20,000 nucleotides of DNA. Source: Perkinsus olseni (lineage: Eukaryota). Below the pieces are notes generated by a model, which ran no database searches, was not told the DNA's origin, and saw only the letters and a list, made by a program, of their open reading frames with translations. Position 1 is the first letter of the stretch. Each line of letters begins with the position of its first letter. A program made the position numbers and the translations under genes. This document shows, one piece after another, positions 109 through 8,761 of the stretch. Location of the stretch: assembly GCA_013115125.1 (NCBI GenBank), contig JABANN010000115.1:49788-69787 (forward strand), read 5' to 3'.

Positions 109-3100
109 CTAGGGTCGGTTGTCAACCCCTCCAGGCACCACTCGACAGCCCCGATACGAGCGCGTTAATCCCATCACAAAAAACCTTTGAACTTGTAATG
201 GCCCCTGCTGTCGTGACGCGTACCAAACTCCACCAAACTCACCGCCTCATAGCCTCCCCACATAACCGCCAGGAGCTGAGCATCCCAATAGGAGCCACAA
301 ACTATCCCCTCCTCCTCAACATGAGCATACACCCTCGAGGATGCAGCCATGTAGCAGCTTGCAGAGACGCGGTAACGGCCATCTCCCTCCTTGGCAGGAG
401 GGGCTCGGACTGGGTCGCAGGCCATGGTCCGAGCCTGACCTCCCTTCTCTCCCCAGGGCGACACCTGCAGGCACAAGTCCGCCGTCGAGAACTGGGCCGA
501 GAGTTTCACTCACGGATAGGCCGCGGTTGTCGAAGAGGAAGTTGGCGATGTGCTGAGGCATGTGGTTCGGGCCGGACAGGGGAATCATCTCCTGGCAGCT
601 TCCAAGGAACGACTGACGAGAGCAACGATCGCCGAAGCGCTGCATATCACTTCGCACCCTCTGAGTGGTGGTAGTGGTCGTCGGGGTGGTGGTCGTGGTA
701 GTAGTCGTCGTAGTGGTCGTGACGACCTGAGGCAGGTATCTTACAGAAGGCTGCGCGGCAAGGGTAACCTACTGTTGTGAACCCTGACCAGGCGAAGTGC
801 TTGAACTGGTACCACCACGAGCGCGTCGTCGGGGCCGGCGTTGTGGTAGTGGTTGTTGGCGTGGTCGTTGTAGTCGTGGAGGCCCTTACCTCCTCCTTAT
901 GGTACATCACAACATGCTGGAACCATCCCGAGGAGTGCGAGGACCTCGCCCCGCTGGGAACTGGGCCGGCCCCCACCCCGCCCTGAGGGACCGATAGAGG
1001 AGGAGAAACCAGTAACACAGGCTTACTTGGAAGCCGCCCCAGGCCCTCGCCAAGACCTCAGCATCACCGCGATTGCCGCATACCACAACTCCCCCACCCG
1101 ATCGGCCGTGACCTAGCAGAATTCCATACCGCAAATCTCCCAAATCTCCTTCAGACCCACCATCATAATCCCGACAGTCCACACGGACCAGCCAGGTAGC
1201 TCCCTTGCCCTCCGGAGGCACCTCTACTGGCTGGCACCTCAACTGCAGTGGATGTATCATCTGTGGTGGGAGGACCTGCTTCAGGAAACTCAGTCCCACA
1301 CAATACTAAGCCTCGGTTCTACTGTGAGTTCCCGCTTTCGATCGTCGAAGTCGATGATATCATCTGCCTGTCCCTTCGAAAAGTCCGCTATGAGTTTGTT
1401 GCAGGACTGAAGAAGGACTACAGGTGGGAGCCCACCAACACTCACTAAGAGCAATGAGAGAGCAACTTGCTGCTGTCCCTTAGCGAGTTTCGATCAGCAT
1501 ATTGAAATATACAACGACGCCATTTACGGGTGAACCGCCCACGCTCTCCTCTCACCTCCGCTGCCGGTAGACCGGCCGACGGCTGCGATTTCGCCCCCTG
1601 AGAGACAGAGAGGGTGAGCTAAATAAGATCGTCTCCATCCTTACGGTGGCGTGGTGGCCCCAGGAGCCTCCAGCGTAGGTGTACCACGACCCGCTGCTGC
1701 TGGCTTCCACCCCATCCGGTAACCGCATGCCGTTACCAACCATACCAGGGAGTGAATATGGGCCAGGGACCCAAGAGGGATCCTGGACAAAAAGCAGGCT
1801 CCGAGGATCGAACCCGGGACCTCGCTAGCTCACATCGAAGCCGCCCCACAGCTTGGCGAGTGTCCTAGCCTCGTACTCCGAGTCGCACCGAATCTTCCCC
1901 TCCACTGTCTCGACGCCACCGATGCCAATGATGTTGCACTTCACCGGAATGAGCCAGTCGTTTAGGTCAGCCCGGTGCTTCGGTCGCGTGACCACCTCCT
2001 CGCAAGCTGCTACTTCGGGCTCTCCTTTGTACTGGCGTCGAACCTGCCCTGCCAGAGTCAGGCCCACCCGATGAGGAAGACTGACCTTAAACCTCCTCCC
2101 CGAGGTATCAAAGGCGGTGATCTTGCCGTATTTATAGCTGTGGCGCGGGCGAAACTCCCGACAGGTACCAAAGCCAGCCTGAGCACCATCCAATGCTCGA
2201 CCGCCGCGCCGAATGGCAGCAGTCTATTACTTCATCAGTGGGCACGAACGAACCGCCACTCCCCTCAGAAGGAGATGGGCCGAACGCTTCCTCAGACTAA
2301 CATTCGACCGTTAGGCATGGTTATCGCACTGCGGCAATTCTTACCTCTGTACTATGCTCTTCTTCTGACGAGTCGAGCAGGCCCTCTTCCTCACCCTCCT
2401 CGACCGCAGCGGTGTCGGCCTCTTGCTCATCACTACTGTGTGCTTCATCATCGAAGGAGGTCTGACCGATGGGAGCCGTGACGAAGGACCCCGACTGCGG
2501 CAGGGGCTGCTTATGACTTTCCACCCACCTTGTAGCGGTCGACCCTATTATCCTCCGAAAAATGCCTCACCTCGGGCTCCCCGTGACCAGAGCTCTCCTA
2601 CAGGACCACCATCGCTGGAAAGGCGATCGCTCGAAAGACTCACCTCATCTCCCGGAGAGAACCCCTCCCCGATTCCCGATGAGAGTCTCGCGAGATGGTG
2701 AACCTGAGGTCTTCCATACTACGGCTACAGAGCCCACGCTACGAATTCCTCGACGAATCATCGTTGGCATATAGCTGCCATGCCGGCCCCAAGAGAACCC
2801 TCACGTCCTGGCCGGTGGTTACCTCATCTGCGTCCTCAAAACTCGGCAGGTCCTCTGGGACACCGTCCTCCTCCTCATCCTCTTGATCGCCGCTATCGCT
2901 GTTATAGCCTCGCAGCGAGGAAGCCTCAGGCTCGGTAGCAGCTACCTCGGGCGCCTGATTGAGAAGAAACATGAGAGCCCCCTCGAGACCTCCGCAGGAC
3001 GACCAGACGCTCATTGCGCCAGCAACTGGCAACAATCACAACGGACCGCAATGACCGGGGAATGGCTGGCGACCCATCGGCAATTGACGAAAAAAGGCGA

Positions 3101-4775
3101 TCGAAGTTGGAGCCGACATCAAAGCTCCACCAGGCAGGACAACCTCGGCAGCGGCAGCACGAACCAGTCTACCTCGTCGTCGTAACGCGGACTCTCTCCT
3201 AAAGAATCTTCCAGCTCATCTTCGTCACTATCCAGGGCTCGTTCGCCATGGCCATCCTCCTCGGAATTGACCAGCCCGTCAGCGGCAGGGAAGGTCGGTG
3301 GCAGCGGCGCCTGATGAGCCGTATAGTCGACAACCATGACTGTCGCCTTCCCCAAGGTGGCTCACCTCAGGATACTTCTCCGAAGTGCTTCGCTGAGCCG
3401 AAGCCGATGAGGGCTGGTCGATAGAGTCACCCTCATCACCCTTTGGCGGAGGAGTGTCCTCGAAGCCCTCAACGCTCGGTCCCTGGCAGAACGGGCTATA
3501 ATTGAGCGCACGTTTCCTCCAGTGAGCCCGCATGGCAAGTAAGTGGATCGATACGATAACGAGACGCTCCGGGAGGGGTACTCACACTGCGACCTACTGT
3601 ACCTCTTCCGAAGAATCCTCAACAGTATTGGACTCATCCTTCGGCTCCTCTGTACCCTCCTCCTCGTCGTCGTCGTCGCCACCTTCAGTTTCCTCCTCAT
3701 CCCCCTCCGAGTAGCCCTCAGTCGCACCGCCTTCACGGTTATCCTCAGAAGTCTGGTTCTTCGAGCCCTCCCCAGCGGCATCCTCATCACCAACCGTATC
3801 GTCCTCATCGCCGCTGCTACTCTCATCAGGAGTATCGTCGGTCGCCTTAATGCTCGTTGGTTCACCCTGCCCATCGGCAGCAGGCTTACTCTCTGAGTCC
3901 TCGCCAGTCCCTTCCTCCTTCCCTGCACCACTAACATCATCCTCGCTCCCCTCGGGCGTCACCACATCTTCGCTATCGCCCGACTCGGTGCTCCCCTCGT
4001 CTGGGGTATCGTCGATCGCCTCAACACCCGCTGGCTCATCCTGCTCATTGTCAGCCATGCTAGTCCCTTCTTTCTCCCTCTCACTTTCGCTGCCATTCTC
4101 GTTCCCCTCAGGTGTCACCTCGCCTTTAGACTCGGTACTCCCCTCGTCGAGCAGCCCACCCGACTCCAGGACTTTCGTTTCGGGAGCTTCATCCGCCACC
4201 GCCTCGGACCCGGAAGTGGAAGCTTCACCGCTGCTGCCATCCGCCGAAGGACCCAGAGCGCTGGTAGCACTGCTATCCTCAGTATTACCCGTCTCCGACT
4301 CCAGCCTCGGCGGAGCGATGCTGCCCCCTGCTGAGCTATCATTACTCGCTCGATAGCTCGACTCGAGTGCAGCACCAGTCCTTCCCTTCTTCAAGGCCTT
4401 CACGCTTCCCACTGCGAAAGGCGCTCCCCAACTCTCAGCGAAGTAAACTGCATCGCCCTGCGCATCAAAGTGCAGGACGAACAGAAACTTTTTCTTCGGC
4501 TCCTCTGGCCTCGCGCACTTAGCGTCTATGAAAGTCCCCCACGGCTTAGAGACAATATCGTCGCAGTAGAAGGTCTCCTGCAGGTCCCAAAGGTTGGCCT
4601 TCTGCTCCACGAGCTTCAACAACCGCACGCCGGCCTTTTCGTCCCGGTAAGCGTGCGTCGCAACGAACTTGTCCCCATCTGAACCGACCCGGACGTACTT
4701 CACTGGGCCCGCGTAGTTTACCTGAGATGATTGGAGGAGATTGCCTTTCCCCGAAAATTGCGCTGTAACGAACAA
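109..4775 (-). CDS. Large multi-exon protein: one type-A 'DA..FA..WG' domain, a long Asp/Glu/Ser-rich spacer, then three type-B Cys-containing 'A..LA..WGG' domains with Thr-rich linkers (may be two genes; both ends uncertain)
   Basis: Short minus-strand ORFs join through canonical phase-0 GT..AG introns, e.g. 2085-2044, 1833-1783, 1322-1276, 1026-983, 513-465 and a donor at 242. The spliced product reads VNYAGPVKYVRVG...HFDAQGDAVYFAESWG, acidic region, AGFGTCREF...EARTLAKLWGGFD, LLQSCNKL...DAEVLARAWGGFQ, poly-Thr, FLGSCQEM...DAQLLAVMWGGYEA. The start codon is not identified and the stop at 111-109 is tentative. Confidence 0.6.
661..880 (-). repeat. Two poly-Thr/Pro mucin-like coding tracts (ACN repeats)
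   Basis: STTTTTTPTTTTTTPAPTT (~826-880) and VVTTTTTTTTTTTTPTTTTTT (~665-727) are read on the minus strand between domain copies B2 and B3. Confidence 0.8.
1789..1825 (-). other. tRNA-like 3' half (variable loop, T-arm/B-box, 7 nt, T5) inside a 51-nt intron; not a full tRNA
   Basis: The minus strand reads GCGAGGTC CCGGG TTCGATC CTCGG AGCCTGC TTTTT, giving a 5-bp T-stem with one G-U pair and a canonical TTCGA loop. No A-box, D-arm or 7-nt anticodon loop is present upstream. Confidence 0.45.
3600..4148 (-). repeat. Degenerate acidic tandem protein repeat (49- and 58-aa units plus a partial third)
   Basis: Units start at 4148 (DEGSTES..VTPEG..EGT..DDTP), 4001 (DEGSTES..VTPEG..EGT..DDTP) and 3827 (DESSSG...). 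Confidence 0.75.
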
Positions 4776-4952
4776 AATGCAGCATGCAAAATTGAGGCCA
4801 CTATGCCATCACTATGTATAGTGATGAATTTTGATATACATCAACAATTGCAGAGCGATAGGACACTACATTATCCATACAATATCGACCGCCGTTCTCG
4901 CGCCACGTGGCATAGTGGTCTCACTTTTGTGGATTGCATTTTTTCGTTACAG
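4763..4952. mobile_element. MITE-like 190-bp element with imperfect ~46-bp terminal inverted repeats
   Basis: The reverse complement of 4763-4808 (TGGCATAGTGGCCTCAATTTTGCATGCTGCATTTTGTTCGTTACAG) matches 4908-4952 (TGGCATAGTGGTCTCACTTTTGTGGATTGCATTTTTTCGTTACAG) at 38/46 aligned positions. The interior is AT-rich and there is no clear TSD. Confidence 0.65.
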
Positions 4953-5018
4953 ACTGTATAGCAGTAGTACAACACAGAATATTGCAACTCCCACAGTACA
5001 GGGAAGAGTCGTTCAACT

Positions 5019-5712
5019 CTACGGTAGTGCGCAAGTCAATTCACCAAGAGTATGAGAAGGGAAACCTTGACCAATAGAAGCCATATAAAACCCACCACAC
5101 CCTACCACTCCATCAGCTTCGACAACTTTCGACCTCGTCCTGTTCAGTACCGCCTCCCAATCCTCGCGGACTTGCTGATCATCCGGTATCTCCTTGGTCA
5201 GTTCCACCGGCGTCTTATGCCGATGAACATTCCCCCAGAGCTCCGCGAACTCCACCGCGTCTTCATGCGTCGGAAAGTGGAAGTACACCGAGCGCTTGTC
5301 AGCTGCTTTCCCGCCAGGCTTGGTACATATCGTGGCAGCAATCGTCGAACCTTCCGGTGGCCTTCGTTGCACCATACTGCAGTAGTAGGGCCGGAGAATC
5401 TTCTTCGTAAAGGAGCTCCTTATCTTCACTCGCATCGCTCGACTGGCTCCCCGCTTGAAGGCAGTGAGAACCTCCCACTTCATCGGGTCATCACCGATGT
5501 GAGCGTACAACACTTTAGTCGCCAGATTCGGCGGGTCCAACTTAGCTCGTACCTGAGCAAGCGAAGACCGCATAATACAGCTTCTACAAGCTATGCATGG
5601 GGAATACAGTACAGATCCATCTAAAAATCGACGTGGCGATACCACATCTTACCCCACTCGTCAAGCTGAGAAGGGCCATCACGAGGGCCCGCAGGCCAGG
5701 TGACGTCAGCAT
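5019..5712 (-). CDS. Putative secreted protein with a type-A 'DA..FA..WG' domain (copy A2)
   Basis: Exon 1 (5712-5653) encodes the signal-peptide-like MLTSPGLRALVMALLSLTSG. A GTAAG..CTCAG intron spans 5652-5553. Exon 2 reads VRAKLDPPNLATKVLYAHIG...YYC...TIC...FHFPTHEDAVEFAELWG. The 3' end is uncertain because of a possible phase-0 donor at 5105. Confidence 0.7.
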
Positions 5713-6068
5713 TCACAGGGCCGACCAAATTAGACAAAACAACTTCGCAAGGACAGACGAGTCAGTGGCCGAGGCCGAGCGGCATCCCACTGCATTCGGC
5801 CGAGGCTCCGGCGCGGGTCGAGAAGAACTCCTGGTGATTGACGAACGCCACAGCAACAGATGGAGACATCACACAAGGGACAGCGCGAACACCGTGCATA
5901 ACATTAACGCACGCTACCACTTGAACGTGTAAGAGGCCTGCTCGGTAATGCCACAGAGAGCTTTGTGGACGGGCCGCTATGAGAGGCCGAGCCTGGGTTA
6001 CACCAGACACTCCTTAGCGGAAAATCCCCCCTGGGAGTTGCCAGAGTCTTCCAGCGCACCGTCGGCTT

Positions 6069-6533
6069 TTACCACTCAACGCCGACCTTCGGGCGCGCCG
6101 CCGGTAGCGCTGAAACCTGAGACATAGCGAGACTGAGTAACGGCAATGGCAGCAGTCTGAGACTCACCTCCTCGGAAACATCTCTTTTCGAATAAGGCAG
6201 GACCAGCTTAGGAGGAGCCGAACTTCCCGCCGGTAGAGGCCCTCCCCACTTTCCTTCAAATTTGTGCGCATCCTCTACGGTCTCAAAGTGGAAGGTCAGT
6301 GTAACCGCATCCCGGGCAGCCCATCCCTCCGGTATGCACCGGGCCGTGACCAGCCCGCCCACCTCAAGGCTAACGTCAACACAGGTGTAATCTTCCCTTA
6401 CGTCCCACAGCCAAGGACGGTGTCTCACCAGCCGAGCTATCCGCGTGTTTGCTAAGCGGTATGCTCGGGTGAGGATAAAGATATCTTTTGAAGCTCAAAT
6501 TGTCACGTACTTGACGGTTGAACCGAGATTAAT
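6069..6533 (-). pseudogene. Type-A domain paralog (copy A3) with an in-frame TGA at 6497-6495; probable pseudogene
   Basis: INLGSTVKYVTI*ASKDIFILTRAYR...LWDVREDYTC...TARC...FHFETVEDAHKFEGKWGG aligns by eye with copy A1 (VNYAGPVKYVRVGSDGDKFVATHAYR...LWDLQETFYC...DAKC...LHFDAQGDAVYFAESWG). A 51-nt GTGAGT..CAG intron follows VSEE. A possible first exon MLTSGVRRLL starts at 6716. Confidence 0.55.
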
Positions 6534-7621
6534 CTGAAATGGTTTTTGGTGAAACCACAGTCCCGAAAATTGATTCAATACCAGAATTTCCGTAACTCAA
6601 TGGGAACCGACAAGTACCACGAAATCTTACAACGCATAGCGAATGCCAGATCCAGAGCAGCGAGTCATGGTGCTCTGCTGCAGTTGGAGGAGTCGCCTCA
6701 CGCCACTGGTCAGCATATTACAGAGATGAGAGAGCAAGCCGACGGAGCGATGCGAAACAGACGCATCTCACCTCATCATTGGCCTCAGCAAATTTGACCC
6801 TATTTTCCTCGAGGAGCTCCTCCCAGTTTTTCCGCTTTTGCCTCCCTACCGCGTCGACTGGCACGTCAGTTGCCAACGCCCAAGGAGTGTGGAAATTGCG
6901 GTAATCACCCCAGACATTTTGCGAAGGTCATCTCCTCCACGTGGTTAATAAAATAGAACAAAATAGAACCCTAGCGTGCTCTTCAACAGCAAGCCTTGGT
7001 CGGGCGAACTGCATGCTGCTTCAACCACGGTCTCTTCGGGGACCGGGGCTGCCAGGACCTCCTTCAGGGGCCTCCTTCGGACCTCCTTCGTGCTCTTCAG
7101 GGGCGCAGGAGAGAGTGAGCCTCTCAGCCGATGCTGAGGCGTGCCTCGTGCTCCATCTCGTCAACACGACAAAGCGGCTCTGCAGACGCCGGAGGAGCCC
7201 AGTCGGGCGAATAGCGCTTCGCTGCCAAGGTTGGGGGGGCTCCAATGGGAGACGCTCCGGACTGCCAGGCCGAGACGAGGCCGAGGACCTTCCCAGGGCC
7301 CCTCCGGACTGAGCCGCCACCATCAGCCACCACGATGATGTTTAGCATGCCCAAAAGCGAAAGTGGCCCGGCAACAGCGTCGAGAACTACAGGGTGCGTC
7401 TCTCAAATTTCAGGAGCGCTCCCAGAATGAAACTTAACGAGTAGAAGACGACCCTGCGAGCGCTCCTGAAGCTCAGGACAGGCCTATTGAACACCCGGGC
7501 ATCTTCGCACTGTGATTGACAGTAACGCAAGGACCTGCGTGTACTCGAACATCGTCTTGAACATGCATGGAGACACATAAAATATTGTAATGGTAGTAAA
7601 CTTCTAATGCCATGCTCGTTT

Positions 7622-8761
7622 CTATTCCTGCGCACTGAAGACGCTGCCGTAGACCGTGAAGCGGTCGCCCACGCCAAAGACGTCGGCGGCCTTCTTTCGT
7701 GTCTTGTAGGGCTCCCGGCTGACCAAGCGTGGTACGATCTCTGCCGCCGCCGCCGCCCGATCGATAGATTGTGGTGATGCCGGAGGCGAGGCTGCAAAGA
7801 GCTCCGGATGCGGCTTCGAGTGGATCCAAATGACGACCATCAGCTGGGCGCCGTTCAAGAACACACCAACGAGGTTGGGGATCAGGTACGGCAAGGAGTG
7901 CATGAGGATGCTGCACTGCGCCCAAAGGCAACAGGATATGAAGCCCGCCACCGTCAATGCTGTAGGGTATCCCTCCAACGACTTCGACCGGACCACCGTG
8001 ACGATCTGGGGCGTCGGAGCTGCACAGAGGATGATACTGAGAGTCGTGGCACTGTAAGCGAAAACCTGGACCTTGAGCTTGGTGTCAGAAAGGCTGGTGT
8101 TGCAGATGAGAGCACCAACAACCACTGCCATCACCGACAGCAGCGTAGCGGCTTTGCTCACAACATGGCCGTCGTAGGAGGCGAAAACGGCGACGTAAAA
8201 AGCCGAGATGAACACCGTTAGGAGGTTGATGTGGACGATATCCCAGTGGGCCGTCAGGTAGCCGTACCACACCCACAAGTACGCCTGAGAAAGTCGACAA
8301 AAATATCGCAAAAACCCGGGGGCATTGCCGACCTGCGTGAACAGGGTCGAGTAGGGCAACGCGGATCCCTTCGCTCGCTTAGCTCGGAGCATCTCTATGA
8401 AGTCTGGCAGAGGAGATAGCACCGATAGCGCTGAAAGCGCCATGGCCATGTACCTGTATATTCGACCAAGCAGCGGAAGCACAGCAGAGCAGCATTCTCA
8501 CGTCAGAGTTCGTAGCCAGTCTAGACCGCCCAAGTCGTCATGGTGATGGTAATGATGCTGCTGCTGGGCTCCGAGAGCAGCAAGGTCGGCGGGCTGATGG
8601 TGATGATGAGTGGCAGAAGCCTGACGACACTCACGGACTGCGTTGTGGGTACAGAGGGAGAGGCTTACCGTGTCACCGCTATTGAAGAGGCTCAACAGCA
8701 GCTGGCGCCCAGGGTCGTAGTATCTACTTTCCACTACTGCACAATCTAAGTTTCTTTTCAT
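7622..8761 (-). CDS. SWEET: SWEET (MtN3/saliva) family sugar transporter, 7 TM, with a His-rich N-terminal extension
   Basis: Two MtN3 repeats: SPLPDF...ALPYSTLFTQ|AYLWVWYG...HINLL and APTPQIVTVVRSKSLEGYP...LW...LIPNLVG...QL. Three 48-nt GT..AG introns lie at 8668-8621, 8501-8454 and 8332-8285. The ATG at 8761 is tentative. Confidence 0.9.

Follow-up and report, generated by a model that had tools for sequence, protein, structure and literature searches.

A probable secreted mosaic gene with two cysteine-bearing domain families in Perkinsus olseni

The stretch of DNA analysed here, hereafter the window, comprises 20,000 nucleotides (nt) of the Perkinsus olseni assembly GCA_013115125.1 (contig JABANN010000115.1, positions 49,788 to 69,787 of the forward strand); coordinates below are positions within it. 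Its minus strand carries six copies of cysteine-bearing domains with a common C-terminal ending, which an original prediction, made from the letters and open reading frames, had described as a tandem array. Five of the copies are probably part of a single gene with 18 or more exons, encoding at least 1,255 amino acids (aa). For the region as a whole we favour, as reasonably probable, one long intron-rich mosaic gene for a secreted protein (5712 to below 243, minus strand), likely a wall or surface glycoprotein, accompanied by a decayed upstream paralogue.

Domain copies and gene structure

The shared ending, written as the regular expression [DE]A..[FL]A..WG, has exactly six matches in the six reading frames of the whole window, all of them on the minus strand (Table 1); the same six-frame search gave no match on the plus strand and none past position 6533. 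The six minus-strand segments reported to end alike were all recovered at their places, the quoted peptides being exact, and the two spaced cysteines reported ahead of each ending were seen in every copy. Type A copies (A1, A2, A3) have two cysteines each, and type B copies (B1, B2, B3) have two ahead of the one within the ending, plus a fourth at the N-terminus.

The copies fall into two families, three of type A (about 105 aa, two cysteines) and three of type B (about 100 aa, four cysteines). Pairwise BLASTP, run against a database of eight sequences only, gave E-values of 2e-14 to 3e-6 within type A and of 7e-7 to 6e-5 within type B. A hidden Markov model (HMM) built from each trio matched its own three members and nothing else among the 639 six-frame pieces of the window, such member matches being circular, since the members had built the models. 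On these comparisons, the six copies are more than a chance motif. The alignment of A1, A2 and A3 extends over about 105 residues with 27-34% identity and 11 invariant columns, including the two cysteines (A1 against A3 in BLASTP: 36% identity, E 2e-14). The alignment of B1, B2 and B3 likewise has 11 invariant columns; the N-terminal exon pieces, which misaligned, were excluded from the B alignments as separate rows. As the next-best of the 639 pieces had E-values of only 0.54 and 2.5 with the trio HMMs, the window contains no seventh copy detectable by this search.

The region is GC-rich (0.52-0.59), and frame prints show it to be interrupted by many short introns. These do hide the repeated pattern, as had been remarked: in spliced coordinates every B copy is split at the same position, after its first 28-46 codons, by an intron of 42 nt (B1, 2044-2085), 47 nt (B2) or 49 nt (B3). 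Its removal is required for the reading frame of B2 and B3; the intron of B1 is in-frame and therefore hidden inside an open frame. The same junction is present in P0006, a B-containing protein fragment found independently.

Instead of an array of six genes, as originally envisaged, we probably have five copies (A2, A3, B1, B2 and B3) in one mosaic gene and a sixth (A1) in a probable pseudogene. Exons 1-9 are established as one gene by two P. olseni protein models, P0001 and P0004, the latter being colinear with window positions 5712-2345 in tblastn, at 75-87% identity over long pieces. When the complete model was checked by coordinates, 18 of 18 exons were multiples of three, 17 of 17 introns had GT-AG borders (42-384 nt), and the joined frame contained no stop in 1,255 codons. 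The introns are often short, nine of the 17 measuring only 42-55 nt. All 18 exons are in phase 0, and such symmetric exons would make module duplication and shuffling easy. Since the model ends at a GT donor (242-241), the gene would continue beyond the window; six copies are thus counted within it, and further ones may lie past its left end, as the predicted "six or more" would allow.

Table 1. Features of the mosaic gene and of the upstream paralogue; positions in the window.
Feature	Position	Strand	Basis
Matches to the shared ending	6243-6272, 5232-5261, 4425-4454, 1843-1872, 1036-1065, 255-284	minus	regular expression; peptides as quoted in the original prediction
A1, degenerate first exon	6631-6716	minus	DNA alignment with the A2 signal-peptide exon, frame print
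A1, exon with type A domain	6168-6533	minus	alignment; in-frame TGA 6495-6497
A1 domain	6219-6533 (6219-6494 + 6495-6533 ahead of the in-frame stop)	minus	alignment
Exon 1: 20-residue signal peptide, then GT donor	5653-5712	minus	same N-terminus as P0001 and P0004; tblastn
Exon 2: A2 and short linker	5106-5552	minus	alignment, tblastn, splice sites
A2 domain	5208-5543	minus	alignment
Exon 3: A3, then first part of acidic disordered region	3603-4721	minus	alignment, AlphaFold2, tblastn
A3 domain	4401-4721	minus	alignment, AlphaFold2 model
Six small acidic exons, phase 0	3482-3366, 3310-3173, 2954-2823, 2703-2644, 2597-2529, 2461-2345	minus	colinear with P0004 ~543-754; GT-AG
B1, two exons	2223 (or 2178)-2086 + 2043-1834	minus	shared intron position, P0005; putative link to exon 9
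Two putative linker exons	1782-1645 (Trp/Gly-rich), 1597-1556	minus	open frames, GT-AG, phase 0 only
B2, two exons	1406-1323 + 1275-1027	minus	shared intron position; same junction in P0006
Linker exon, poly-Thr/Pro runs and Trp-rich motif	773-982	minus	P0006 143-173 against 877-788, 55% identity
Poly-Thr run and B3, two exons	726-514 + 464-243	minus	shared intron position, splice check

Encoded protein

The conceptual protein begins with a putative signal peptide, which, read by eye, has a basic n-region, then a hydrophobic core, and small residues ahead of the cleavage site. Encoded at 5712-5653 ahead of A2, it answers to the one copy that had been credited with a signal peptide. The N-termini of P0001 and P0004 conserve it, both models starting with it, and the model has no other hydrophobic stretch, no membrane segment being present in the part seen. 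All 17 cysteines lie within domains (two in A2, two in A3, four in B1, four in B2 and five in B3), the first four at residues 78, 96, 222 and 238. The expectation of a secreted protein thus agrees with the N-terminal signal peptide and with an even number of cysteines, confined to the domains, in A2, A3, B1 and B2 (B3 having five).

Both predicted kinds of spacer, acidic and poly-Thr, are present. The acidic region between A3 and B1 comprises 477 residues, of which 32% are Asp or Glu, with a net charge of -125 and neither Cys nor Trp. The basic modules are A2, with a net charge of +10 and a pI of 10.0, and, to a mild degree, B1 (net +5). Thr accounts for 34 of the 103 residues of the linker before B3. 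Linkers that follow B domains share a Trp-rich motif, seen at 788-877 and 1645-1700 (minus strand) of the window and at residues 143-173 of P0006 (55% identity over 31 residues), which may represent a small conserved element in its own right.

Type A domain

Among 211 candidates, three database proteins were matched by the A3 open frame: P0001 (589 aa) and P0002, both recorded as "hypothetical protein, partial [Perkinsus olseni]", with 91-93% identity to this frame, and P0003, an unnamed paralogue of 237 aa, with 71% identity. A profile search added P0004, a second partial P. olseni model of 754 aa. The P. olseni hypothetical proteins are 75-93% identical to the window, which, judged by these values, is somewhat diverged (as a genome or a haplotype) from the P. 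olseni protein records. Relatives of the domains were found in Perkinsus-like records only, which agrees with the suggestion that the family is lineage-specific; for type A, the relatives came from a word-index search and not from an exhaustive profile search.

As had been expected, the copies match no Pfam family. The profiles of PH (PF00169), WH1/EVH1 (PF00568) and Ran_BP1 (PF00638) gave no match to the A copies, P0001, P0003 or P0004, even at an E-value of 10. The sub-threshold matches obtained with 12 open reading frame pieces and all domain pieces (GGGtGRT, New_glue, DUF3439, MbhD, SSP160 and holin) were regarded as noise. DUF5093 (PF17011) was rejected as well, since it matched P0003 only (E 0.0065, 17.2 bits against a cut-off of 27) and no copy of the window. 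Searches of the literature on Perkinsus wall proteins, on secretomes and signal peptides, and on secreted PH-like and mucin-like hypothetical proteins yielded no description of these domains, and nothing relevant was found on DUF5093/PF17011.

The A3 domain was modelled by AlphaFold2 with a mean predicted local distance difference test (pLDDT) score of 85.8 and a predicted template modelling score (pTM) of 0.76. The model consists of strands at residues 7-12, 18-27, 32-39, 48-58, 64-71 and 74-85, the last of them long, followed by a helix at 88-98. Eight of the ten top rows of a Foldseek search of the PDB with this model were PH, EVH1 or Ran-binding entries (TMq 0.45-0.55, probability 0.77-0.98), namely the PH domains of TgAPH and PfAPH, the EVH1 domains of Homer and Mena, the Ran-binding domains of RanBP2 and NUP50, and the DH-PH unit of Tiam1; the other two were beta-lactoglobulin and trypsin. 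For a low-confidence model of P0001 in the ESM Atlas, the neighbours were RanBP1, WH1 and Rpn13 (TM 0.25-0.37). Type A is therefore predicted to have a PH-like fold, a beta-sandwich with a closing C-terminal helix, while standing outside any described family. The tentative comparison of the ending with EVH1/PH-like folds holds in this sense for type A, at the level of the AlphaFold2 and Foldseek results; type B has no fold match. In the A3 model, C53 and C69 are symmetric about the turn at 59-63, placed as would be expected for a cross-strand disulfide.

The last strand and helix of the A profile also align to the corresponding segment of NDUFS4 among PDB sequences (E 0.0025, 20.9 bits); in the domain this is the C-terminal strand and helix, e.g., window positions 4425-4480. 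However, the match spans just 40 of the 190 profile positions, and the 50 Foldseek rows listed for the A3 model do not include NDUFS4. Membership of the corresponding Pfam family NDUS4 (PF04800) was rejected, as P0003 alone gave a match (13.2 bits against a cut-off of 31.9, E 0.11) and no window copy did. The resemblance is that of a local motif.

Type B domain

An exhaustive search with the B profile among 1.84 billion representative proteins gave four hits at E<=0.001, of which only P0005 and P0006 are true relatives. P0005 is a mis-modelled fragment, 84% identical to B1 over 2046-1828, and P0006, a fragment of 274 aa, combines a poly-Thr run with a complete B domain, a linker and an incomplete further B domain. 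The two remaining hits, P0007 with its SRCR repeats and the bacterial repeat protein P0008, were rejected, because many weak local matches add up to their scores. A Pfam search with the B pieces gave nothing above threshold. Against PDB sequences, the B profile matched only Cas2 (E 0.34), and a wider alignment had no hits.

The fold of type B was modelled on P0006. In the AlphaFold2 model, the C-terminal half of the domain has a pLDDT of 80-92 and is built of three to four strands and a helix. P0006 had no model and no usable match in the ESM Atlas.

The cysteine-bearing strand before the closing helix of B resembles the first strand of SRCR repeats: along P0007, a giant SRCR-repeat protein of 4054 aa, the B profile has 39 weak local matches, each at the first strand of a repeat before its helix. 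However, each of these reaches just 2.6-5.4 bits over 22-33 of the 84 profile positions, and B stops at the helix, whereas SRCR continues for some 80 more residues. An SRCR domain has about 110 residues and six to eight cysteines. With four cysteines in about 100 residues and no Pfam match, B was not accepted as an SRCR domain, the resemblance being one of motif only. Type B is an orphan four-cysteine domain with no fold match.

Upstream paralogue and neighbouring genes

The sixth copy, A1, lies upstream of the mosaic gene. The context of the start codon in its first exon is like that of the A2 gene, and the frame that follows encodes no hydrophobic signal peptide. The exon with the domain starts at an acceptor in the same place as that of A3, and its codon 13 is TGA (6495-6497), at a position where A2 and A3 share a conserved Gly; this codon was read as X in the comparisons. 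Because of the in-frame stop and of the lack of a usable signal peptide, A1 is read as a decayed single-domain paralogue, probably a pseudogene or a nonsense allele.

Further upstream, and on the same strand as the mosaic gene, the next gene is an open frame of 291 codons (7622-8497, minus strand) with a Pfam match to the SWEET sugar transporters (MtN3_slv, E 9e-16, in two stretches). Seven further long open frames tested between 8500 and 20000 had no Pfam match; any genes there are intron-split.

Discussion

The shared ending is the last strand-to-helix junction of both domain types. The view that all six copies represent one domain with two subtypes was not borne out, since every cross-type comparison by BLASTP, HMM or hhalign was non-significant: the best BLASTP match between A and B had an E-value of 0.15 over 13 residues, the HMMs gave no cross hit at E<10, and the hhalign probability was 2.4% (0.5-2.6% with the spliced B copies). 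A single domain family produced by tandem duplication, in which B would have arisen by remodelling of A, the fold being the same over the whole domain, would agree with the common ending, the similarly spaced cysteine pair and the occurrence of five copies in one gene. It would also agree with the hhalign score of 24.5 over 53 columns (P 0.0015, probability 17%) obtained after P0006 had been added, four A sequences being compared with four B sequences; none of 200 shuffles of the B columns reached this score (mean 10.8, maximum 19.5). When the ending was cut from both, the Cys-hairpin segments still aligned (score 15.4, 22 columns), which one of 150 shuffles reached, and the predicted C-terminal order of strand-strand-strand-helix is identical in the two models. 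Nevertheless, we hold a single family to be doubtful. The hhalign probability varies between 2 and 17%, the global alignment of A and B collapses once the ending is cut off, the N-terminal halves are predicted to differ (three strands in A against a helix in B, the latter with low confidence), and introns are found at one position inside each B and nowhere inside A. Furthermore, tests that include the ending are biased, because the B copies, like the others, were selected by it, and the ending alone is weak evidence of kinship, because the strand-helix motif also matches NDUFS4 (from A) and SRCR repeats (from B) locally.

These same local matches indicate that a short motif can be alike in unrelated folds, and it is possible, if only tentatively so, that A and B are unrelated and that their common ending is a convergent helix-start motif after a buried strand. 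The non-significance of all cross-type sequence comparisons would fit such an origin, as would the match of the A profile to the strand and helix of NDUFS4, a protein that does not appear among the Foldseek rows listed, and the scattered weak matches of the B profile to P0007. However, the likeness of A and B is not confined to the ending but includes the Cys hairpin, which aligns in matching order and register, and both types occur in the same gene; on these alignments, common ancestry of the C-terminal halves (Cys hairpin, strand and helix) appears plausible. A more far-reaching proposal, which we consider distinctly unlikely, is that A and B together make up one family of the Perkinsus lineage, its modules being extracellular, stapled by disulfides and descended from a PH-like fold. 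The first strands of B would have given way to a helix and a second disulfide would have been gained, and the modules, linked by acidic and mucin-like spacers, would build a wall or a host-contact surface. On this proposal a normally cytosolic fold would, as rarely happens, serve as an extracellular binding module.

Several points weigh against reading the region as one long gene for a secreted wall or surface protein together with a decayed paralogue. We infer exons 10-18, and the connection of B1 with exon 9, from GT-AG sites of our own choosing. P0004 is annotated as partial and ends after exon 9, at a GT donor without a stop codon; P0001, also annotated as partial, stops in exon 5; and none of 227 candidates for a longer protein (232-2000 aa) contained B1. 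The signal peptide was judged by eye, and secretion, location in the wall or at the surface, glycosylation and binding are read from the architecture. The models of both folds were built on alignments of only four sequences; none of the 500 counted Foldseek matches of the A3 model had E<=0.001 (best 0.046, TMq 0.51-0.55), the Foldseek search of the PDB with the B model returned nothing credible (best probability 0.16), and the N-terminal half of B in the P0006 model, drawn as a helix, has a pLDDT of 50-60, i.e., low confidence. The description of type A as Perkinsus-only is weak, because this family was sought by a word-index search only, and the stop in A1 could be an allele or a sequencing error. 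As both P. olseni models stop before B1, and P0005 and P0006 are B-only fragments, the region could instead comprise two genes, an A-A-acidic gene ending near 2345 and a separate downstream B-repeat mucin-like gene. This we consider unlikely, since the two models are partial and P0004 runs into a donor site, no start codon with a signal peptide is present between 2345 and 2166, and exon 9 can be joined to B1 through an in-phase AG acceptor (2224 or 2179) with the frame kept free of stops. That P0001 and P0004 stop inside the gene may be the reason why the B part is missing from the longer annotated proteins. It is highly improbable that the product is an ordinary cytosolic PH, EVH1 or Ran-binding adaptor that is not secreted: the nearest folds all belong to cytosolic domain classes, but the signal-like N-terminus is conserved in two P. 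olseni models, the cysteines are paired and confined to domains, the linkers are poly-Thr, and the Pfam searches for these three classes found nothing even at an E-value of 10.

For the single mosaic gene that we prefer, the following scheme is suggested. The signal peptide would be cleaved and the protein secreted; A2 and A3 would fold into PH-like beta-sandwiches with one cysteine pair each as a cross-strand disulfide, and the 477-residue acidic stretch would probably be disordered. It would be followed by at least three four-cysteine B domains, spaced by Thr/Pro/Trp-rich linkers. Linkers of such a kind are typically O-glycosylated. Hypothetically, the folded A and B modules would bind partners, the poly-Thr segments would serve as O-glycosylated spacers, and the acidic stretch would carry charge and possibly pair with the basic A2 and B1. 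The signal peptide, the cysteine modules, the acidic stretch, the poly-Thr runs and the absence of a membrane segment in the part seen all point to a secreted glycoprotein of the wall, matrix or surface, and by its architecture the protein is most likely a structural or adhesive component of the parasite wall or surface coat.

Heavy losses of oysters and clams are due to Perkinsus species, parasites for which hardly any descriptions of wall and surface proteins exist; one discussion (PMC8062965) names only a handful of extracellular Perkinsus proteins. With the present locus, two domain families so far without annotation are recognised in a large, apparently secreted protein, and a corrected gene model becomes available for entries that are on record only as partial "hypothetical proteins". 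Its value is modest: it offers a candidate marker of the wall or surface, and domain boundaries that structural work could use. It has no bearing on any long-standing open question. Should the predicted fold of A be true, it would represent an unusual extracellular, disulfide-bonded use of a normally cytosolic PH-like fold.

The closest structural parallels of type A are members of the PH-like superfold, i.e., the PH domains of apicomplexan APH (6f8e, 6f24), the EVH1/WH1 domains (1i7a, 2iyb) and the Ran-binding domains (7mo0, 9b62). They rank among the top Foldseek matches of the A3 model (probability 0.85-0.98) and, as predicted for A, consist of a beta-sandwich with one C-terminal helix, the superfold having about seven antiparallel strands. 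The PH, EVH1 and Ran-binding families are known as cytosolic or nuclear, whereas A follows a signal peptide and carries a cysteine pair suited to a disulfide; moreover, A has no sequence or Pfam match to them, and its Foldseek E-values are no better than the one given above. In overall architecture, the predicted protein differs from the Thr-rich, mucin-like wall and surface glycoproteins of parasitic protists in that its modules belong to no described family, and it resembles them in the combination of a signal peptide, small cysteine modules and poly-Thr/Pro spacers.

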